Below are positions 5,455 through 27,307 of a stretch of 64,000 nt of DNA, one piece after another. The notes under the pieces are model-generated. The model was given only the letters and a program-made list of their open reading frames with translations. It made no database searches and was not told the DNA's origin. Every line of letters begins with the position of its first letter. Position 1 is the first letter of the stretch. Source of the stretch: an uncultured Anaerolineaceae bacterium (GTDB taxonomy: Bacteria; Chloroflexota; Limnocylindria; Limnocylindrales; CSP1-4); NCBI GenBank assembly GCA_964427285.1, contig CAYRTS010000002.1, forward strand, positions 8,269 to 72,268, in the 5' to 3' direction. The position numbers were made by a program, and so were the translations under genes.

Positions 5455-6372
5455 GTGATCACCTATCTTGCCCGGCGCATCCTGTGGATCATCCCGGTAC
5501 TGTTCACGGTCTCCATCCTCACGTTCGTCCTCATGCATGCGGTCCCCGGTGGACCGTGGGACCGTGAAAAGGCGCTGCCAGAAGCGGTCCAGGCGCGTCT
5601 CAACGCCCAGTACGGGCTGGACAAGCCGATCTACGAGCAGTACATCCAGTGGGCCGGCGGGTTCATCCAGGGCGACCTTGGACCCTCCTATCGGTTCAAG
5701 GACCGGTCGGTCAATGAGATCGTTGCCGATGGCCTTCCGACCACCATCCAACTCGGCGTCATGGCCTTCCTCCTGTCCGTTCTGGTCGGGATCCCGCTGG
5801 GAATCGTTGGGGCGCTCGGTCACAACCGCTGGCCGGACTACCTGTCCACGAGCATCTCGATTGTCGGTATCTCCACGCCCAGCTTCGTGCTGGCGATCCT
5901 GCTGGTCGTCTTGTTCAGTGTGCAGCTGGGCGTGTTGCCGACCAGCGGTTGGAAGGGCCCGACCTACTGGATCCTGCCCACCGTCGCCCTGGCCGGCTTC
6001 CCGATCGCGGTGATCGCCCGGTACACCCGTGCCTCCATGCTCGAGGTCACCCGCAAGGACTACATCCGCACGGCCATGAGCAAGGGCCTGCGCGATGGAT
6101 CCGTGGTCACCCGTCACATGATCCGCAACGCACTCATCCCGGTGGTGACGATCCTTGGCCCCACCCTTGCCTTCCTGGTCACCGGCTCGTTCATCATCGA
6201 GCGAATCTTCAGCGTCCCGGGTGTCGGCCAGTTCTACGTCACGGCGATCTCGACGCGCGACTACAGCCTGCTGATGGCGATGACGATGCTCTATGCCTTC
6301 GCGGTCGCCTTCCTCAATGTCGTGGTCGATGTCCTGTACGCCTACATCGACCCCCGGATCCGGTACAGCTAG
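5455..6372 (+). CDS. ABC transporter permease (DppB/OppB-like)
   Basis: The 305 aa ORF has multiple TM helices. It has DppB-like N-terminal sequence and the conserved permease region with the EAA-type loop. Confidence 0.85.
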   Translation: MITYLARRILWIIPVLFTVSILTFVLMHAVPGGPWDREKALPEAVQARLNAQYGLDKPIYEQYIQWAGGFIQGDLGPSYRFKDRSVNEIVADGLPTTIQLGVMAFLLSVLVGIPLGIVGALGHNRWPDYLSTSISIVGISTPSFVLAILLVVLFSVQLGVLPTSGWKGPTYWILPTVALAGFPIAVIARYTRASMLEVTRKDYIRTAMSKGLRDGSVVTRHMIRNALIPVVTILGPTLAFLVTGSFIIERIFSVPGVGQFYVTAISTRDYSLLMAMTMLYAFAVAFLNVVVDVLYAYIDPRIRYS

Positions 6373-14257: not shown

Positions 14258-16027
14258 CTATCCGGCCGGCGGGTTGAGGAACCCACTGAACAGGCCGGGG
14301 AAGTACGTGAACGAATTGTCGCGGCCCTTGTGCAATGGATGCGCGGCATCCCATTGGACGGCGTAGCTGAGGACGACGTCGTTCGCGTCGAGGATCGATC
14401 CGTCGTGGAACGAGACGTTCTGGCGCAGCGCGCATGTCCAGACGGTCAGTTCCGGGTTCGGCTCGCACTTCTCGGCCAGGGACGGGATGGCTGCCGTGCC
14501 GGCCGTCTCGTAGGCGTAGAGCGACTCCATGATCTGCTCGCAGACCCGCAGGGCCTCGCCGTCCGACTCGTCGGCGCAATACAGTCCCGGCGGCTCGGCG
14601 TTCTGCATCCAGACGAACTGGGTGCGATCACCCGGGATCATCGGTGCGAATTCCTCGTTGCCCAGCGGAGACGCATGGGCGTTCGAAACATCGGCCCGAT
14701 AGGCGACCGCGGATCCGCCGTGGACCACCGGGATCATCGGCACGTTGGCCCTGATCGCGTTGTTGGCGGCCACGTACGACGGCTCGCGAAGGGCGTCCGT
14801 GAGACCGGCGCCGCCTTCGGCCAGGGCGCCGGTGATATCGGTGAACTTGTCGCCGAACTGCTTGGATGAGCCGGCGCCAAAGTGGAAGTCGAGGAAGTTG
14901 GTCACGTCCGGATAGTCGGCGCCCCAGCCGAGCAGGTGCAGGCCGTCAAGCGCGCCAGCGTCCGCGTTGTCCAGGAAGGTCCCGGATTCCTGCTCGACGA
15001 TCTCGACGTCGATGTTGAGGTTGTTCTTGAGCTGAGCCTGGATGTCCGTGCCGACGACGACCGGGTCAGGCAGGTAGCCGCGGACCACGTTGCGGTAGTA
15101 GAGCTTGGTCGAGAAGCCGTCGGGGAAGCCGGCCGCAGTCAGGAGATCCTTGGCAGCCGCGACATCGAAGTCGTACCACGCATCACCGGCGCATCCGTTC
15201 GGGATGGAGCACGGTGTGAAGTGGCTGGCGACCTCGGACCCGGATGGGTAGAAGGTGTTGACGATCCGGGAGCGGTCGATCGCCATGGCGATGGCCTGGC
15301 GGACCCGGACATCGGTGAACGGGGCGTACGTGTTGTTCATGCCGATGTACATCACGTTGAGGCCCTCGCGGGGCTTGAGCTGGAGCTCTGGGTTGTCGAT
15401 GACCGTGGCGAAGTCGGTCGGCCCGACGTTATCGATGGCGTCGACGCTGCCGGCCTGAAGCTCAACGAGCCGCTGCGCGGCCTCCGCGCCCCAGCGCACG
15501 ATCAGCTTCTCGGTCTTGGCGTCGGGACCCCAGTAGTTGTCGTTCCGAACGAGGGTGATGTCCGAGCCGCGGTTCCAGGCCTCCAGCTTCCAGGGCCCGG
15601 TGCCGTTGAGTTCGGACACGATCGCCTGGTTGTCCGCCTTGGCCGGGTCAATCTTCGATTCCAGCCACGCCGTGTCGTTGATCGCGAACGAGGTGAACGC
15701 GATCTTGGACAGGAAGGCGACGTCCGGGTTGCACAGTTCGAACACGACGGTATTGGCGTCCGGCGCGCTGATCCGCTTGAAATTGCCGGTGTAGGGATCC
15801 GTGCCGCAGGGAGCCTCGCCGGACTCCGGATAGGAGGCTCCGACGTACGGAGCATCGGTGGCGGCTGGCGCGGCGGTGGCGGGGGCCGCTGTGGCGGGTG
15901 CCGCGGTGGCGGGTGGTTCGGCGCTTGGCGCAACGGATGGCGCGCCGCCGCTGCAGGCCGTGAACACGATCGCCACGGTTGCGGCCAGCGCCGCGAGCCT
16001 GGGCGACCAGATGCGTGATCGGGTCAT
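14258..16027 (-). CDS. ABC transporter substrate-binding lipoprotein, family 5
   Basis: The start is chosen at MTRSRIWSPRLAALAATVAIVFTACSGG, which carries a lipobox. An Ala/Pro/Thr linker follows, then an SBP_bac_5-like body. This is the first gene of the minus-strand operon. Confidence 0.8.
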   Translation of the reverse strand: MTRSRIWSPRLAALAATVAIVFTACSGGAPSVAPSAEPPATAAPATAAPATAAPAATDAPYVGASYPESGEAPCGTDPYTGNFKRISAPDANTVVFELCNPDVAFLSKIAFTSFAINDTAWLESKIDPAKADNQAIVSELNGTGPWKLEAWNRGSDITLVRNDNYWGPDAKTEKLIVRWGAEAAQRLVELQAGSVDAIDNVGPTDFATVIDNPELQLKPREGLNVMYIGMNNTYAPFTDVRVRQAIAMAIDRSRIVNTFYPSGSEVASHFTPCSIPNGCAGDAWYDFDVAAAKDLLTAAGFPDGFSTKLYYRNVVRGYLPDPVVVGTDIQAQLKNNLNIDVEIVEQESGTFLDNADAGALDGLHLLGWGADYPDVTNFLDFHFGAGSSKQFGDKFTDITGALAEGGAGLTDALREPSYVAANNAIRANVPMIPVVHGGSAVAYRADVSNAHASPLGNEEFAPMIPGDRTQFVWMQNAEPPGLYCADESDGEALRVCEQIMESLYAYETAGTAAIPSLAEKCEPNPELTVWTCALRQNVSFHDGSILDANDVVLSYAVQWDAAHPLHKGRDNSFTYFPGLFSGFLNPPAG

Positions 16028-16194
16028 GCCGTGCGTCTCCTCCACTTGCGCCCCGTCCCGGACAGAAATGGTTCACGCGTCCAGCAACGCGGGGCATTGA
16101 TGATCGCGCCACCCTCCTCGGTTCGCGCGAAGTGCCCGGAACACTAGCACCGGCCGGAACCGCCGTCACCCCCTGTCTCGCGTATCCTCCGGCG

Positions 16195-17130
16195 ATGGAT
16201 GTCGTTCGCGTTGCGCTCGCGCAGATCGCGCCGGCGCTCGGCCAGCTTGACCCGAATGTCGCGCGTCATCTCGAGATCCTCGCCGACGCCCGCGAGCGGA
16301 AGGCGGATCTGGTCGTGTTCCCGGAGCTGGGGCTGACCGGGTACCTGCTCCAGGACCTGGCCGGCGAAGTAGCGATGCGCCTGGACGACCCACGCCTCGC
16401 CGACCTGGCTGCCGCCACGAGCGGGCTGTCAGCGGTCATTTCGTTCGTCGAGGAGTCGATCGATCATCGATTGTTCATCTCGGCCGGCCTCTTCGAGGAC
16501 GGTGCCATGCGCCACGTCCACCGAAAGCTCTTCCTGCCGACCTACGGCCTCTTTGACGAGCGTCGCTTTTTTGCTGCTGGGGACGGGCTGCGGGCCGTCC
16601 CGTCGCGGCTGGGAGCCGGGATCGGGCTTGCGGTCTGCGAGGACTTCTGGCACCTGGCCGTTCCCCAGCTGCTGGCACTGGACGGTGCCCAGATCCTGAT
16701 CAATGTCTCGTCGTCTCCCGGGCGCGATCTGGCGGCCACGAACGAGGTGGGTCTCGGGACGGCGACCTCGTGGCGGACGCTGATGCGGACCTATGCCCAG
16801 CTGACGACCTCGTTTGTCATCTTCTGCAATCGTGTCGGGGTGGAGGAATCAATCTCGTTCTGGGGCGGCTCGGAAGTGATCGCCCCGACCGGGCAGGTGC
16901 TCTTCAGCGCGCCGCTCTACGACGAGGGCCTGTTCACGGTCGACATCGCGCTCGCGGACATCCGGCGCGAGCGGATCGCGCTGCCGTTGCTGCGCGACGA
17001 GCGACCGGAGCTCCAGGCGCGCGAGCTGGACCGGATCGTGGCGGAGCGCGCCGGCATGGCGCCAGATTCGACCGATGGTGCGACAACTGTGACCGCCATG
17101 ACCGCCATGACCGCCCCGACCGAGCCATGA
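16195..17130 (+). CDS. carbon-nitrogen hydrolase (nitrilase superfamily); probable glutaminase subunit of glutamine-dependent NAD+ synthetase
   Basis: An ATG at 16195 (MDVVRVALAQI...) has a Glu-Lys-Cys triad context: FPELG, HRKLFLP, AVCEDFW. It is immediately followed by nadE. The C-terminus carries TAMTAMTAPTEP repeats. Confidence 0.8.
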   Translation: MDVVRVALAQIAPALGQLDPNVARHLEILADARERKADLVVFPELGLTGYLLQDLAGEVAMRLDDPRLADLAAATSGLSAVISFVEESIDHRLFISAGLFEDGAMRHVHRKLFLPTYGLFDERRFFAAGDGLRAVPSRLGAGIGLAVCEDFWHLAVPQLLALDGAQILINVSSSPGRDLAATNEVGLGTATSWRTLMRTYAQLTTSFVIFCNRVGVEESISFWGGSEVIAPTGQVLFSAPLYDEGLFTVDIALADIRRERIALPLLRDERPELQARELDRIVAERAGMAPDSTDGATTVTAMTAMTAPTEP

Positions 17131-17146
17131 TGGGCCGGACCGAGCC

Positions 17147-18040
17147 GTGACCGCTCCGACGGAGCCCTTCGAGCTGCCGACCGAACTGGCGATCGACACG
17201 GACATCGCCCGGCGGGTGATCGCCGAGTTCATCCGCGGGCAGCTCCGCCAGGCGGGGTTCGAGCGGACCGTGCTCGGGCTCTCGGGCGGGGTCGATTCGG
17301 CCCTGGTGGCGTATCTCGTGGCCGAGTCAATCGGCGCCGAACGACTGCACGCCGTGTTGATGCCGTATCGGACCTCATCGCCGGCCTCGCGCGCCGACGC
17401 CGAGACGGTGGTCGCCGCGCTCGGGTGCTCGAGCGAGGTCGTTGAGATCAGCGCCATGGTGGACGGCTACTACGGTGCCGCGCCCACCCCCGGTGCCGCC
17501 GGGCCCGAGGGCCTTGGCGCGGCCAGCCTCCGTCGCGGCAATTTTGCGGCCCGCATGCGCATGGCCGTGCTGTACGACCGCTCGGTGACGTTTGGCGGCC
17601 TCGTCGTCGGGACCGGCAACAAGACCGAGGCCCTCATCGGCTACACGACCCTCTTTGGCGACTCGGCCTGCGCCTTCAACCCGATCGGTGACCTGTACAA
17701 GAGCCAGGTCCGCCAGCTGGCGGTGGCGGTCGGCGTCCCGGACGCGATCGTCCGCAAGGCCCCCAGCGCGGACCTGTGGCCGGGCCAGACCGACGAGGGC
17801 GAAGGCGGGTTCAGCTACCCGGCACTTGACCGGCTCCTGTTCTGGCGGATCGACAAGCGCCGGTCCGTCGACGAGATGGTGGCGATGGGATTCGACCGGG
17901 CGAACGTGGATCGGGTGGACCGGCTGGTGGCCGGGGCCGAGTTCAAGCGGCAGGTGCCGCCGATCGCCAAGCTCGGGCCGCGGACGACCGGCGTCGACTA
18001 CCTGTATCCGCGCCGCCGTCCGGGGTCCGCGCGCGGGTGA
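17147..18040 (+). CDS. nadE: NH3-dependent NAD+ synthetase domain protein
   Basis: The 297 aa ORF has a GTG start, the PP-loop SGGVDS, and NadE-like sequence throughout. The N-terminal TAPTEP repeats the C-terminus of the upstream ORF. Confidence 0.85.
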   Translation: MTAPTEPFELPTELAIDTDIARRVIAEFIRGQLRQAGFERTVLGLSGGVDSALVAYLVAESIGAERLHAVLMPYRTSSPASRADAETVVAALGCSSEVVEISAMVDGYYGAAPTPGAAGPEGLGAASLRRGNFAARMRMAVLYDRSVTFGGLVVGTGNKTEALIGYTTLFGDSACAFNPIGDLYKSQVRQLAVAVGVPDAIVRKAPSADLWPGQTDEGEGGFSYPALDRLLFWRIDKRRSVDEMVAMGFDRANVDRVDRLVAGAEFKRQVPPIAKLGPRTTGVDYLYPRRRPGSARG

Positions 18041-18951
18041 CCGGAGGTAGCGTCGGGGCAACGGTGAAACCGCTCGCGGATCCGGCTGGCACGCTATTTG
18101 TCGTCTCTACGCCGATCGGCAACCTCGGCGACATCACGTTGCGTGCCATCGAAACCCTGCGGGCCGTCCCACTGATCGCCGCGGAGGACACCCGGCTGAC
18201 CCGGCGGCTGCTCGACCGCCACGCGATCGAGGGGCGAATGACCAGCTTCCACGCCCGGAGCGCGCCCGGCCGCCTGGAGGCCCTGCTGGCGCACCTGCGC
18301 GTTGGAGCCGACCTCGCCGTTGTGACGGATGCGGGCACGCCTGGAGTGAGCGACCCCGGCGCGGATCTCGTGGCCGCGTGGGCTGGGGAGGGCGGCCTGG
18401 TCGTGCCGATCCCCGGGGCTTCGGCGGTGCTGGCTGCGGTCGCGGCGAGCGGCGTGGCCGGTCCGCGCTGGGTCTTTGAAGGATTCCTGCCTCGATCCGG
18501 CCGCGACCGGAGAGCGCGACTGGCGGCCATCGCGGCCGATCCGCGGGGCGCCGTTGTCTACGAGGCGCCCGGCCGCATGGCCGCCACGCTTCGGGACCTG
18601 GCGGCCGCCTGTGGACCGGAACGTCAGGCCGCCGTCTGTCGCGAGCTGACCAAGCTCCACGAAACGGTCGTCCGCGGGTCACTGGGCGACCTGGCCAGCG
18701 CTGCCTCAGTTGGCGAGATCCCGGCCCGCGGGGAGTTCGTGCTGGTGGTTGGGATGGCCGGCGACGACGTGTTGACCGCGGCACGCCTGACCGGTGGCGG
18801 GCCTGATCCGGAGGCCGCGGTGAGCGAGGCCCTGGCCCAGGTGGAACACCTGGTGGCGGATGGGATACCGCGCGGGGAAGCTGCCCGGCAGGTCAGCGCG
18901 GCGACCGGGATCCCTCGTCGCCGACTGTACGAGACGGACGTACGCCGATGA
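18037..18951 (+). CDS. rsmI: 16S rRNA (cytidine1402-2'-O)-methyltransferase
   Basis: The protein contains LFVVSTPIGNLGDITLRAIETLRAVPLIAAEDTRLTRRLL, typical of the RsmI tetrapyrrole-methylase-like fold. Confidence 0.85.
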   Translation: MTGGSVGATVKPLADPAGTLFVVSTPIGNLGDITLRAIETLRAVPLIAAEDTRLTRRLLDRHAIEGRMTSFHARSAPGRLEALLAHLRVGADLAVVTDAGTPGVSDPGADLVAAWAGEGGLVVPIPGASAVLAAVAASGVAGPRWVFEGFLPRSGRDRRARLAAIAADPRGAVVYEAPGRMAATLRDLAAACGPERQAAVCRELTKLHETVVRGSLGDLASAASVGEIPARGEFVLVVGMAGDDVLTAARLTGGGPDPEAAVSEALAQVEHLVADGIPRGEAARQVSAATGIPRRRLYETDVRR

Positions 18952-19679
18952 CGCGAGCGTCGCAGCCAGGACCCGGCCGGGCGCCACGGGCGCCACGGGA
19001 GATGGTGCTCGTGCCCGCCGGTCCCTTCCTGATGGGGAGCGACGAGTTCGAACGCGAGGGACCGCCCCACATGGTGAACCTGCCGGAATTCTGGATGGAC
19101 CGCTTTCCGGTCACAAACGCCGACTACGACACCTTCGTCCGGGAGACCGCACACCGGAGCCCGGTGGATTGGCGCGGTGGTCCGGCGCCGGGCGATCGGC
19201 TCGATCATCCGGCGCAGGTGACGTGGACAGACGCGACCGCCTACACGGCATGGGCCGGGGTCCGACTCCCGACGGAGGCCGAATGGGAGAAGGCCTCGCG
19301 TGGGACGGACGGCCGCCGGTATCCATGGGGCAACACGTGGGACGGCACACGGGCCCTGACCTGGGAGACGTCCGCGGCGACCGGTCAGCGGACCGAGCCT
19401 GTCACGGCTCGCCCCGCTGGCGCCAGCCCGTACGGCTGCGAGCAGATGGTCGGGATGCTGGAGGAGTGGACGGCGGACTGGTATGACGCCTACCCGGGAA
19501 GTCCCTACCGGAGTCTCACCTACGGTGAGCGGGTTCGCGTCCTCCGCGGCGGTGCCTGGCTGTTCACCCAGACCCACGCACGGTGCGCCTATCGCTGCTT
19601 CGAGTTGCCAGACCGGCCACCGGCCGAGATGGAGGTCCTGGGCGCCCCAACCTTTCGATGCGCGATCGACGCGGGATGA
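18948..19679 (+). CDS. formylglycine-generating enzyme (FGE/SUMF1) family domain protein
   Basis: FGE-sulfatase-like motifs are present: MGSDEF, RLPTEAEWEKA, RGGAW. The true start may be the internal MVLVPAG at 19002. Confidence 0.7.
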   Translation: MTRASQPGPGRAPRAPREMVLVPAGPFLMGSDEFEREGPPHMVNLPEFWMDRFPVTNADYDTFVRETAHRSPVDWRGGPAPGDRLDHPAQVTWTDATAYTAWAGVRLPTEAEWEKASRGTDGRRYPWGNTWDGTRALTWETSAATGQRTEPVTARPAGASPYGCEQMVGMLEEWTADWYDAYPGSPYRSLTYGERVRVLRGGAWLFTQTHARCAYRCFELPDRPPAEMEVLGAPTFRCAIDAG

Positions 19680-25960: not shown

Positions 25961-27202
25961 GTGGATGCCGATCTGGAGATCCCGTTCAACCCGGTGGACC
26001 CGCGGTTCATCGCCAATCCCTACCCGGCCTATGAGCGGGTTCGCGAGTCCGGCGCCGTCTGGCATCCCGAAGGCGATCACCTCTGGTACCTGACCCGCCA
26101 TGCGGACGTCCATTCCGCCTTCCGCGACCGTCGACTCGGGACGAACTTCCTGCATCGGTACACCCCCGAGGAGCTAGGCCTCGCGCCCGGAATCCCGGTC
26201 TGGCGCGATCCGCGCTGGCAGGACTTCGCCGCCTTCGAGCGCTGGGAACTCCTGAATCTCGAACCCCCGGTGCACACCCGTCTGCGTCGCCTCGTGACCG
26301 AGGCGTTCACGCCACGGAGCATCGAGGGGCTGCGCCTCGACATCTTCGGGCGGGCTCGGGCGCTGTTGGAGCCCGGCCGCCAGGCTGGATCGATCGACCT
26401 CGTCAACGACTATGCGCAGCAGTTCTCGCTCGGCATCATCTGCGACCTCATCGGCGTGGCGCCGGCGGATCGGGAGACCATCAAGCGCCTGTCCGATGAC
26501 ACCGTGGCGATGTACGAGCCGGCCCCATCGGAGGCCCAGCGGATCGCGTCCGATACCGCCGCCGGGGATTTTCGTCGGTATCTGCTCGACGTGGTCGCCA
26601 TCCGCCGCCGGACTCCCGCCGCCGACCTGCTGACCGCACTTCTCGATGCGACGGTCGAGGGTGAGCGCCTCAGCGACGACCAGATCGTGTCCACGGCGAT
26701 GGTCCTGCTGATGGCCGGGCATGAAGCCACGGTCAACGCCACGACCAACGGGATTGCCGCGCTGGCGGCGCATCCGGACGAGTGGCAGCGGATCCGCCGG
26801 GGGGAGATCTCGCCACGCGCGGCGATCGAGGAGATCCTGCGCTTCGATCCGCCGCTCCAGTGGTTCGAGCGCTGGGTGCTTGACGCCGGGTTCAGCGTGG
26901 ACGGCATCGAGATCCCGGTCGGGTCGCGGGTGGCCCTGGTGCTGGCCGCGGCCAACCGCGACCCACGGCGCTGGGCCGACCCGGACCGGTTCGACATTCG
27001 GCGTGCTGACGCGGGCCATCTGTCGCTCGGTGGCGGCATCCACTTCTGCATCGGCGCGCCACTGGCCCGGATGGAGCTCGAGGCGACCCTCACCGAGCTG
27101 GCGCGCACGGAGGCGGAGCTGGTCATCCTTCCACCGACGGTGCGTCGGCCCACCTTCCAGTTCCGGGGCTACGAGCGGCTCGAGATCGCGCTGACCAACT
27201 GA
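25961..27202 (+). CDS. cytochrome P450
   Basis: The protein has the heme-binding loop FGGGIHFCIGAPLAR, an EILRF (ExxR) motif, and an AGHEAT I-helix. It starts 3 nt after the preceding stop. Confidence 0.9.
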   Translation: MDADLEIPFNPVDPRFIANPYPAYERVRESGAVWHPEGDHLWYLTRHADVHSAFRDRRLGTNFLHRYTPEELGLAPGIPVWRDPRWQDFAAFERWELLNLEPPVHTRLRRLVTEAFTPRSIEGLRLDIFGRARALLEPGRQAGSIDLVNDYAQQFSLGIICDLIGVAPADRETIKRLSDDTVAMYEPAPSEAQRIASDTAAGDFRRYLLDVVAIRRRTPAADLLTALLDATVEGERLSDDQIVSTAMVLLMAGHEATVNATTNGIAALAAHPDEWQRIRRGEISPRAAIEEILRFDPPLQWFERWVLDAGFSVDGIEIPVGSRVALVLAAANRDPRRWADPDRFDIRRADAGHLSLGGGIHFCIGAPLARMELEATLTELARTEAELVILPPTVRRPTFQFRGYERLEIALTN

Positions 27203-27210
27203 CCCGGGGC

Positions 27211-27270
27211 GGTCGCCCCCCGGTACCTCCGGTCGCCCCCCGGTACCTCCGGTCGCCCCCCGGTACCTCC
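27211..27270. repeat. perfect 3 x 20-bp tandem repeat (GGTCGCCCCCCGGTACCTCC)
   Basis: This is a direct tandem repeat in the convergent intergenic region between the P450 and the MFS gene. A fourth partial unit follows. Confidence 0.9.
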
Positions 27271-27307
27271 GGTGCCGATTTCCGCGGTCGGGGTTGGACT
27301 GGCGGCT

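Follow-up and report, generated by a model that had tools for sequence, protein, structure and literature searches.

Does a junction at which two adjoining genes could be joined by the collapse of a short tandem repeat mark a fused NAD+ synthetase gene that has recently come apart, or have the two genes been separate all along? This question is raised by a nitrilase-like gene (nit) and an NAD+ synthetase gene (nadE) that lie side by side in a window of 64,000 nt, the whole stretch of DNA that was analysed. Comparison of homologues places the lineage of the window in the phylum Chloroflexota, class Limnocylindria, a largely uncultured class of soil and freshwater. Both genes are on the + strand: nit extends from ATG 16195 to TGA 17128-17130 in frame 1 (311 amino acids, with the tail ...TVTAMTAMTAPTEP), and nadE extends from GTG 17147 to 18040 in frame 2 (297 amino acids, with the N-terminus (M)TAPTEPFELP). 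The gap between them is 16 nt, and nadE is shifted by +1 relative to nit. An initial annotation of this DNA had given these gene ends, the frame shift, and the identities of the genes as C-N hydrolase and nadE; the positions and frames are confirmed in the sequence, and Pfam agrees on the identities (PF00795 and PF02540). Frame 2 has a stop codon at 17108-17110, and GTG 17147 is the sole start codon ahead of the conserved FELPTELAID block. We consider it highly probable that the locus is an ancestral two-gene NAD+ synthetase operon, in which the nit/nadE overlap unit was tandemly copied by slippage in the lineage of the window.

The locus belongs to the known "type C" (clustered) two-subunit NAD+ synthetases, as found in Thermus thermophilus (TTC1538/1539). 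Nit contains a CN_hydrolase domain (Pfam PF00795, 1.3e-35), and among NCBIfam models it is best matched by the N-terminal half (positions 4-247) of the fused NAD+ synthase model PRK13981. In the PDB, its best counterparts are G domains, those of the fused NAD synthetases 5kha, 4f4h, and 3n05, which rank above other CN-hydrolases, and its Glu-Lys-Cys triad is found in FPE, HRKLFLP, and AVCED, aligned with fpel, nkhnlp, and licedi of 5kha. The best 120 Nit homologues are all stand-alone proteins of 298-348 aa with PF00795 alone. NadE has an NAD_synthase domain (PF02540, 1.1e-70) as its only significant Pfam domain apart from a weak P-loop match (PF03054). On the NCBIfam model of stand-alone NadE, PRK13980, it scores 300 bits (cutoff, 255 bits). 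Its scores on the fused models PRK13981 (206 bits; cutoff, 479 bits) and PRK02628 (51 bits; cutoff, 473 bits) are far under the respective cutoffs and also under its score on the stand-alone model. The best solved structures for NadE are those of single-domain NadE (1xng, 3p52, and 2e18). Alignments with the single-domain structures stop at residues 271-275 and those with the fused 3n05, 5kha, and 4f4h reach residues 288-292; the C-terminal ~20 residues of NadE (~272-292, PPIAKLGPRTTGVDYLYP...) align only with the C-termini of these fused enzymes. The window NadE thus has the extended C-terminal loop that is a signature of two-component enzymes (PMC3376133). The best 120 NadE homologues are 295-310 aa long, with the exception of one protein of 482 aa (P0121); PF02540 is present in all of them, PF03054 in a few, and a CN_hydrolase domain in 0 of the 120. 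Both nit and nadE are under purifying selection (dN/dS of NadE versus relatives, 0.05-0.11; dN/dS of nit and nadE between the genomes with three junction units, 0.05-0.21 at dS of ~0.24-0.3).

In T. thermophilus, TTC1538 (S) and TTC1539 (G) co-purify at roughly 1:1, and glutamine is used (De Ingeniis et al. 2012, PMC3376133). As in the window, a stand-alone NadE adjoins a nitrilase-like gene homologous to the G domain of the fused enzymes, and the S subunit has an extended C-terminal loop. By homology to Thermus, Nit and NadE of the window would also be expected to form a 1:1 glutamine-using complex. In such a complex, Nit, as the nitrilase-like glutaminase (G) subunit, would supply ammonia, and the stand-alone NadE would amidate deamido-NAD. 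The Thermus pair differs from the window in belonging to a different phylum, and the tandem 20-nt and 9-nt repeats and the mini-ORF are features of the window's junction. The fused NAD+ synthetases (PDB 3n05, 5kha, 4f4h, and 3dla; PRK13981 and PRK02628) are built of the same two modules, likewise with G preceding S; on 3n05, the alignment of Nit spans residues 5-304 and that of NadE residues 314-576. Their S module has the C-terminal loop that is also seen in the window NadE. However, these enzymes are one polypeptide, whereas the window encodes two polypeptides in different frames, and stand-alone NadE models and structures give the window's S module better scores than fused ones do. In the genome table of PMC3376133, those Chloroflexi that are listed have fused or single-domain forms. 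The likeness to the fused NadE of Actinobacteria, which the initial annotation had drawn, does not hold for a lineage of the Chloroflexota.

Comparison with orthologous loci had been proposed as a check on whether relatives are fused or split, and it gave a one-sided answer: nit and nadE are separate in all 81 related loci (Limnocylindria, Chloroflexota), and fused relatives were not found. The nit stop overlaps the nadE start in 69 of the 81 loci (ATGA in 52 and GTGA in 17), and the Nit tails and NadE heads that flank the overlap in relatives are unrelated in sequence to those of the window. Three MFD-series MAG contigs (L073, L023, and L084) contain nit-nadE read-through ORFs. We rejected these ORFs as true fusions, because a conserved Nit tail and an RTGA are retained in another frame and a single upstream frameshift therefore explains the read-through; we suspect an indel error in the assemblies. 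No genuine nit-nadE fusion was found among the 81 related loci. The two-gene layout with a 4-nt ATGA or GTGA overlap is the ancestral state in Limnocylindria, and the two-subunit form, which is known from Thermus and a small number of other groups, is standard across this class of Chloroflexota. It follows that adjoining nit and nadE genes should not be annotated as a broken or recently split NAD synthetase on the grounds that collapse of a repeat could join them.

The sole unusual feature of the locus is the tandem-copied stop/start overlap, which leaves a 7-codon mini reading frame. The 20-nt and 9-nt tandem repeats described initially are both recovered by Tandem Repeats Finder, with three units each. 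The 20-nt repeat (period 20 x 3.2 copies, 17104-17166, 74% matches) is not due to chance: the period-20 self-match is 29/40 at the junction, compared with a window mean of 10.8 (sd 3.0), and it is equalled at just one other locus in the 64 kb. On the + strand, unit A (ATGACCGCCCCGACCGAGCC, 17107-17126) supplies the final codons of nit, MTAPTE(P); unit B (ATGATGGGCCGGACCGAGCC, 17127-17146) lies within the mini-ORF at 17127-17150; and unit C (GTGACCGCTCCGACGGAGCC, 17147-17166) provides the nadE start and first codons, (M)TAPTEP. Pairwise identities of the three units are 16/20, 13/20, and 17/20, the last value being that of units A and C. The 9-nt repeat (period 9 x 2.9 copies, 17090-17115, 100% matches) is made up of the three tandem units GTGACCGCC ATGACCGCC ATGACCGCC at 17089-17115 of the + strand, of which the first, GTGACCGCC, has an initial G instead of A. 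These units encode VTA-MTA-MTA within the non-conserved tail of Nit, and each of them reproduces the initial 9 nt of the 20-nt unit.

The copy numbers of both repeats vary among close relatives, in keeping with the earlier proposal of slipped-strand duplication, at a site prone to slippage, as the origin of the repeats. The 20-nt unit is present once in the outgroups L006, L011, and L041, twice in L001, L003, L004, and L005, and three times in the window, L002, and L102. A further contig (P0005) has the same 16-nt nit/nadE gap, as judged from gene coordinates, and the copy number of the 9-nt unit ranges from 3 to 5 among the relatives P0002-P0005. Unit C sits where relatives and outgroups have the ATG or GTG start of nadE (MTA[PT]TEPFELP). 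Every member of the close clade has unit A, which is missing from the three outgroups, whose Nit tails read ...RLRVADGGDR or similar. Unit C is the original junction unit, and unit A stems from an old duplication of the nadE 5′ end. Unit B is 18/20 identical between the window and L102 and is distinct in sequence from units A and C, which indicates that it was inherited. L002 and the L001 group lie at about equal distances from the window; unit B may have arisen once, with a later loss in the L001 group, or repeatedly. The two-unit relatives still have two genes with an ATGA overlap and different frames, and the nit/nadE frame relation is -1 in these relatives and +1 in the window.

We propose that the 20-nt unit, which consists of the overlap and the first nadE codons (RTGACCGCNNNGACCGAGCC), would have undergone at least two tandem duplications through replication slippage. 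Of the extra copies, the older would have been absorbed by the 3′ end of nit, where it became the Nit tail (...MTAPTEP), and this tail would then have been lengthened by the 9-nt sub-repeats. The younger extra copy would have given rise to the 7-codon mini-ORF between nit and nadE. This is the order of duplication and absorption events that we infer for the junction. With one, two, and three units, the junction forms a small, clean natural series, which shows slippage at an ATGA overlap making mini-ORFs and possibly feeding new C-terminal tails to the upstream gene.

The initial annotation had favored another history, a recent gene fission in which a fused Nit-NadE gene was split by the slippage insertion of two 20-nt units. 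Its arithmetic is correct, in that deletion of 40 nt joins the nit and nadE frames and yields an in-frame ...MTAPTEPFELP... fusion, and the order of nit followed by nadE is the domain order of the fused enzymes. That the join is in frame is an automatic outcome, since nit (in unit A) and nadE (in unit C) read copies of one sequence in the same frame. Against this history, which we regard as very improbable, relatives that are without the newest unit remain two genes with an ATGA overlap and different frames; the 69 overlaps in related loci are flanked by unrelated tails, an observation that the initial annotation had itself named as one that would speak against its proposal; the only read-throughs are frameshifts; and the window NadE falls in the stand-alone family. 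Still less probable is an artefact of assembly or sequencing, also considered in the initial annotation, in which the contig would carry a wrong repeat copy number and the real junction would be different. Short tandem repeats can be miscounted, but the units here are imperfect (65-85% identical) and, at 20 nt each, well inside single reads. Moreover, the three-unit layout recurs in independent assemblies of other samples, with diverged unit sequences in L002 (ERZ25039478) and L102 (ERZ28573521) and, by its gene coordinates, in the P0005 contig (ERZ1305449), and its presence in three such assemblies argues against an artefact.

We assign an equally small probability to programmed +1 ribosomal frameshifting in 17111-17127, through which a fused Nit-NadE protein would be made from the two frames. 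Frame 2 is open from 17111, and a +1 shift ahead of the nit stop would fuse the two products. Nevertheless, the programmed site that had been suggested finds no counterpart in the data: inspection of 17107-17130, which includes ACC GCC CCG ACC GAG CCA TGA, revealed no slippery or shift-prone motif, and no stimulatory RNA structure was found, the fold of the junction RNA being unremarkable (minimum free energy of -30.2 kcal/mol, z = -0.04 versus shuffles). The Thermus enzyme is known to function with separate subunits, and, given that the frame relation differs between the two-unit relatives and the window, no single frameshift mechanism is conserved.

A feature unmentioned in the initial annotation is that unit B amounts to a complete ORF of 7 codons, ATG ATG GGC CGG ACC GAG CCG TGA (17127-17150, + strand; seen in the sequence and confirmed by script), which encodes MMGRTEP. 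Through its ATG at 17127, the mini-ORF shares an ATGA with the nit stop, and through its TGA at 17148-17150, it shares a GTGA with the nadE start. In the window, nadE is at +16 nt relative to nit with no direct overlap, and nit/mini-ORF and mini-ORF/nadE form 4-nt overlaps each. ATGA (-4 nt) overlaps are known from gene pairs coupled by termination-reinitiation (Huber et al. 2019 and 2023, PMC6728339, PMC10666635), and such an arrangement has been linked to coupled translation of complex subunits. Genes of heteromeric complexes show an enrichment of overlaps, and a gap of +14 nt lowers reinitiation by 40-80% (PMC10666635). Similar to the coupled pairs, the two subunit genes of a single enzyme are joined in the relatives of the window by the canonical -4 overlap, and the ends of the window mini-ORF each form such an overlap. 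Unlike the coupled pairs, the window genes are 16 nt apart and overlap twice, serially, via the 7-codon ORF. We found no description in the literature of a serial double overlap through a 7-codon ORF.

A ribosome that ends nit could reinitiate on the mini-ORF and then again on nadE. We judge the chances to be about evenly divided between such a relay of reinitiation from nit to nadE through the mini-ORF and independent initiation at the nadE GTG. A more far-reaching proposal, that the mini-ORF is a working relay and the 20-nt unit is a copy-number switch that sets the tightness and ratio of Nit/NadE co-translation, is possible but rather unlikely. If the relay were true, repeated cycles in which the junction is duplicated and a mini-ORF forms and is then absorbed would also account for the derivation of the Nit tail from the nadE 5′ end, and serial stop/start overlaps would represent a general way to keep coupling after expansion of a junction. 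In that case, the mini-ORF would also provide a simple natural test case for the distance dependence of translational coupling.

Slightly short of an even chance, in our estimation, is the alternative that slippage left unit B behind as a harmless remnant whose mini-ORF has no role, and that translation of nadE starts independently, in the ordinary way, at GTG 17147 or follows rescanning over a short range. A 20-nt period yields the relay geometry automatically: because 20 = 3 x 7 - 1, a mini-ORF of this kind overlaps the nit stop with its start and the nadE start with its stop of its own accord, and, with the period being 2 modulo 3, selection is not needed to explain the geometry. The peptides of the mini-ORFs, of which three sequences are known in all, differ among the window (MMGRTEP), L102 (MIGPTEP, with 18/20 nt identical to the window's), and L002 (MTVRTEP). 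The mini-ORF is missing from L001, L003, L004, and L005, and the loss or absence of unit B in equally close relatives has no visible effect on nadE. In contrast, the window, L102, and L002 share an unchanged 3′ half of unit B (GACCGAGCC + RTGA) despite dS of ~0.25, which is less expected of a spacer without a role. The predicted Shine-Dalgarno pairing upstream of the window nadE is weak (-3.2 kcal/mol), which also speaks against independent initiation. Yet the pairing is equally weak in many relatives with a plain overlap and therefore does not discriminate between the readings; across 70 loci, it ranges from 0 to -12 kcal/mol, and the overlap and gap forms are not separated by it. Finally, gaps of 14-20 nt strongly lower reinitiation in tested gene pairs, so that one would expect a 1:1 complex to require some compensation.

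Bridges that start on a stop and stop on a start also occur in other expansions of the nit-nadE junction, namely in L054 (14 nt), L066 (65 nt), and L007 (257 nt), and in L060 two chained ORFs bridge the junction in the same manner. Two further loci, L057 (48-nt gap) and L049 (CTG at the overlap), are without a complete ORF chain. Selection for an unbroken ORF chain in the longer inserts was not significant when compared with dinucleotide shuffles, of which 26% (L007), 37% (L060), and 85% (L066) have a complete chain. Complete chains are thus common by chance in this G+C-rich DNA, which is a further point in favor of a mini-ORF without a role. An Rfam search of the ~240-nt L007 insert gave no match at E <= 1, and the core motif of this insert is present in no other fetched locus, nor in the window. 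A metagenome scan for the pattern CGAGCCRTGA-N10-CGAGCCRTGAC returned 17 matches, of which 0 are at a nit-nadE junction (tblastn), and it thus added no three-unit example. Start-on-stop, stop-on-start bridges are also seen at unrelated metagenome gene pairs (L098 and L094).

Within the window, nadE is followed on the + strand by a gene for an RsmI-like TP_methylase (18037-18951; Pfam PF00590, 8.3e-28), whose GTG overlaps the nadE stop (GTGA), and by a gene of the FGE-sulfatase family (18948-19679; Pfam PF03781, 1.2e-49), whose ATG overlaps the stop of the rsmI-like gene (ATGA). A scan of 15900-19100 revealed no promoter-like site and a single terminator-like match, at 16424-16437 inside nit, which is no excess over shuffles (mean of 1.0). 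The two junctions downstream of nadE are also RTGA overlaps, and the synteny of nadE and the RsmI-like gene is matched in relatives.

The carbon-nitrogen hydrolase gene (nit; PF00795, 1.3e-35) and the NAD synthetase gene (nadE; PF02540, 1.1e-70) lie side by side on the + strand of the window as a 311-codon ORF from ATG 16195 to TGA 17128-17130 and a 297-codon ORF from GTG 17147 to 18040. The gap between them is 16 nt, and nadE is read one frame over from nit. GTG 17147 is the sole usable nadE start, situated between a frame-2 stop (17108-17110) and the conserved FELPTELAID block. Tandem Repeats Finder places a 9-nt array at 17090-17115 (2.9 copies) and a 20-nt array at 17104-17166 (3.2 copies, 74% matches); the latter contains, in register at 20-nt spacing, unit A (ATGACCGCCCCGACCGAGCC, 17107-17126), unit B (ATGATGGGCCGGACCGAGCC, 17127-17146), and unit C (GTGACCGCTCCGACGGAGCC, 17147-17166). 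Period-20 self-similarity at the junction is 29/40, while the window averages 10.8 (sd 3.0); the 64 kb match this value only once more, at 27213-27272, where cggtcgccccccggtacctc stands in three perfect tandem copies of 20 nt, beginning ~10 nt past a TGA stop at 27201-27203. ORF reading, Tandem Repeats Finder, and self-similarity bear out the ORFs, frames, and both tandem arrays described in the initial annotation, except that the first copy of the 9-nt repeat begins with G and is not identical to the others.

The initial annotation had read this junction as the recent fission of a fused NAD synthetase gene. Homologues of the two proteins do not agree with that reading. PF00795 is the only domain in the 120 best Nit homologues (298-348 aa). 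Among the best 120 homologues of NadE, PF02540 is present in 120/120 (PF03054 too in a few) and the CN_hydrolase domain in none; these proteins are 295-310 aa long, except for the 482-aa P0121. The named matches belong to Chloroflexota/Candidatus Limnocylindrales. Scanning a single genome from each species yielded 80 related loci, almost all of them labeled Limnocylindria/Limnocylindrales, Chloroflexia, or Chloroflexota, with a few metagenome-assembled genomes (MAGs) under other names. The nit stop and nadE start overlap by four bases in 69 of the 81 two-gene loci (52 ATGA, 17 GTGA; RTGA hereafter), and one further locus has a TTGA overlap. The Nit tails and NadE heads around the overlap bear no relation to their counterparts in the window (e.g., ...PIGFRKRAGR*, followed by MTASTPAFELP). 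Split relatives with unrelated flanking sequence are what the initial annotation had named as the sign of an ancient two-gene arrangement, and on these comparisons the split is not recent.

Three MFD-series MAG contigs (L073, L023, and L084) had appeared to carry fused or read-through nit-nadE genes, and we rejected them. In all of them the RTGA overlap and the conserved tail are still present but in a different frame, and a frame error of one base farther upstream is enough to explain the read-through; we suspect assembly indels. At an RTGA junction, one indel suffices to mimic a fused gene. P0121, encoded on a 1915-nt JGI contig, scores 751 bits, more than near-identical homologues of full length do, pointing to internal duplication or mis-joining of the ORF.

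NadE scores 300 bits (cutoff, 255) on PRK13980, the NCBIfam equivalog of stand-alone NAD+ synthase, and a lower 206 bits on the part of the fused model PRK13981 that covers the synthetase. Its closest solved structures are the single-domain enzymes 1xng, 3p52, and 2e18. Alignments with single-domain structures stop at residues 271-275, whereas those with the fused enzymes 3n05, 5kha, and 4f4h reach 288-292. De Ingeniis et al. (PMC3376133) distinguish two-component, glutamine-using enzymes from ammonia-only ones by a signature element, an extended C-terminal loop carried by an enzyme that otherwise has a single domain, and the C-terminal extension of the window's NadE is the same feature. The top NCBIfam match of Nit is the glutaminase half of a fused NAD synthase model; the glutaminase domains of 5kha, 4f4h, and 3n05 rank above all other nitrilase-family structures, and the Glu, Lys, and Cys motifs of Nit align with these domains. 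In Thermus thermophilus, adjacent synthetase and glutaminase genes (TTC1538/1539) encode a tight ~1:1 complex that uses glutamine (PMC3376133). Given these family matches and this precedent, the locus fits a "type C" two-subunit NAD synthetase, and we infer by homology that Nit and NadE would form a complex and use glutamine in this organism. Such enzymes have been known since 2012, and the genome table of that study shows its Chloroflexi with fused or single-domain forms (PMC3376133); the two-subunit form seen throughout the class Limnocylindria thus adds a further member to a known enzyme type.

The junction itself is best described as stuttered, a minor evolutionary curiosity. Aligning it among close relatives yields a copy-number series of the 20-nt unit. 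The outgroups L006, L011, and L041 (80-82% nucleotide identity) have the nadE head unit alone (ATGACCGCNNCGACCGARCC), and the 20 nt preceding it lack similarity. L001, L003, L005 (about 92-94%), and L004 (84-87%) have an extra unit upstream, which nit reads in the same frame (...(M/T)TEP*), and their genes overlap by ATGA or GTGA. Three units are found in the window, L002, L102, and, judged by its 16-nt gap, the contig of homologue P0005. The 9-nt sub-repeat (xTA) occurs in 3 to 5 copies. All repeats lie outside the conserved protein parts; alignment to fused enzymes ends at Nit residue 294, and NadE aligns only from residue 9.

In the three-unit genomes, the extra middle unit is a 7-codon mini-ORF, which the initial annotation left unremarked. 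Unit B of the window reads ATG ATG GGC CGG ACC GAG CCG TGA (MMGRTEP*); its ATG (17127) shares ATGA with the nit stop, and its TGA (17148-17150) shares GTGA with the nadE start. The corresponding peptides are MIGPTEP* in L102 and MTVRTEP* in L002. As 20 is 21 minus 1, duplicating 20 nt at an ATGA junction is bound to yield a 7-codon frame with start on stop and stop on start. Between the window and L102, the middle unit is identical at 18/20 positions, and it is unlike the flanking units; therefore this copy was inherited, not re-created. The window is about equidistant from L002 (92.6/93.1% nucleotide identity) and the L001 group (91.6-92.2/93.6-93.8%), so one gain followed by a loss is not separable from two gains. 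The 3' half of unit B (GACCGAGCC plus RTGA) is invariant in three genomes at dS ~0.25, a weak hint of constraint.

We infer that replication slippage would have doubled the junction unit, that one early copy may later have been joined in frame to nit, and that a second round of slippage would have produced the present mini-ORF. Nit in the window's clade is 12-35 residues shorter than in the outgroups, which fits deletion of an old tail. In most Limnocylindria Nit proteins (e.g., L014, L021, and L025-L028), the CN-hydrolase domain is followed by a conserved motif (...GAEPGLDVAPGDRTPRPIGFR...) in the tail, which might help Nit dock to NadE; this motif is gone from the window's clade, where the repeats make up the tail instead.

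Removal of 40 nt does join the two genes in frame, which had been taken as evidence of fusion. However, one and the same sequence is repeated as units A and C, each in its own ATG/GTG frame, so their collapse must join the frames, and the natural form one unit shorter is no fusion but an ordinary ATGA overlap. A miscount of repeat copies during assembly is also unlikely: the units are short and imperfect, and three further assemblies of other samples have the same three-unit layout with diverged unit sequences. Purifying selection acts on nit and nadE alike, with dN/dS of 0.05-0.21 at dS ~0.24-0.3 in comparisons of three-unit genomes with each other and with two-unit genomes. Programmed frameshifting is argued against by the lack of a slippery motif at the junction on inspection, by an RNA fold no better than that of shuffled sequences (z = -0.04), and by a nit/nadE frame relation that varies among relatives.

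The operon runs nit, nadE, rsmI-like, FGE-sulfatase, with an RTGA overlap at every junction, between nit and nadE by way of the mini-ORF. A scan of 15900-19100 revealed no promoter-like site and one terminator-like match (16424-16437, inside nit), which was not above shuffles. RTGA-type overlaps have been linked to termination-reinitiation coupling, with enrichment among genes for heteromeric complex subunits, and a +14 nt gap cuts reinitiation by 40-80% in tested gene pairs (PMC10666635). Since the mini-ORF begins on the nit stop and ends on the nadE start, a ribosome could move from nit through the mini-ORF to nadE by two reinitiation steps. Shine-Dalgarno pairing is uninformative. We consider a functional relay and plain independent initiation about equally probable.

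The same start-on-stop and stop-on-start geometry spans other nit-nadE junctions, in L054 (14 nt, 5 codons), L066 (65 nt, 22 codons), and L007 (257 nt, 86 codons); L060 has two chained ORFs, and the exceptions are L049, with CTG at the overlap, and L057, with no chain. Shuffling inserts of equal length still completes a chain in 26-85% of trials, which tempers this pattern. In L066 (3452-3517), 33- and 32-nt copies of the nadE head form the 22-codon bridging ORF, and in L054 (3494-3508) and L049 (3467-3481) 14-nt units form 5-codon ORFs, the L049 start having decayed to CTG. These three expansions, in other Limnocylindria species, are independent. Between nit and nadE, two Limnocylindrales MAGs have an orthologous ~240-nt insert in common (L007, 3449-3705; L060, 3199-3436), crossed in both by RTGA-chained ORFs from nit stop to nadE start. 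Its copies are 72% identical, with indels that are not multiples of three and low translated identity; it has no Rfam match, and its core motif occurs in no other fetched locus, nor in the window.

Next to nit-nadE, the rsmI-like methylase (18037-18951) and FGE-sulfatase (18948-19679) genes overlap by ATGA in the window (junction, 18937-18951). In L001 (about 5700-5760), L003, and L005 (92-94% identical), the ATGA is lost and there is an indel of 2 nt, which leaves one 546-aa ORF of TP_methylase plus FGE-sulfatase, a real fusion/split polymorphism. In two unrelated gene pairs from JGI metagenomes, an RTGA junction has likewise been duplicated in tandem over 20 nt, with a 7-codon mini-ORF as the result (gene names read from translations). 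In L098 (12392-12422), a putative Obg-like GTPase gene ending ...TFIWGEP* is followed by VTMWGEP* and a ProB-like start; in L094 (10745-10775, the same as L087), a putative GlcF-like gene ending ...YDREP* is followed by MTTPNEP* and a gene starting MTTPNAA.
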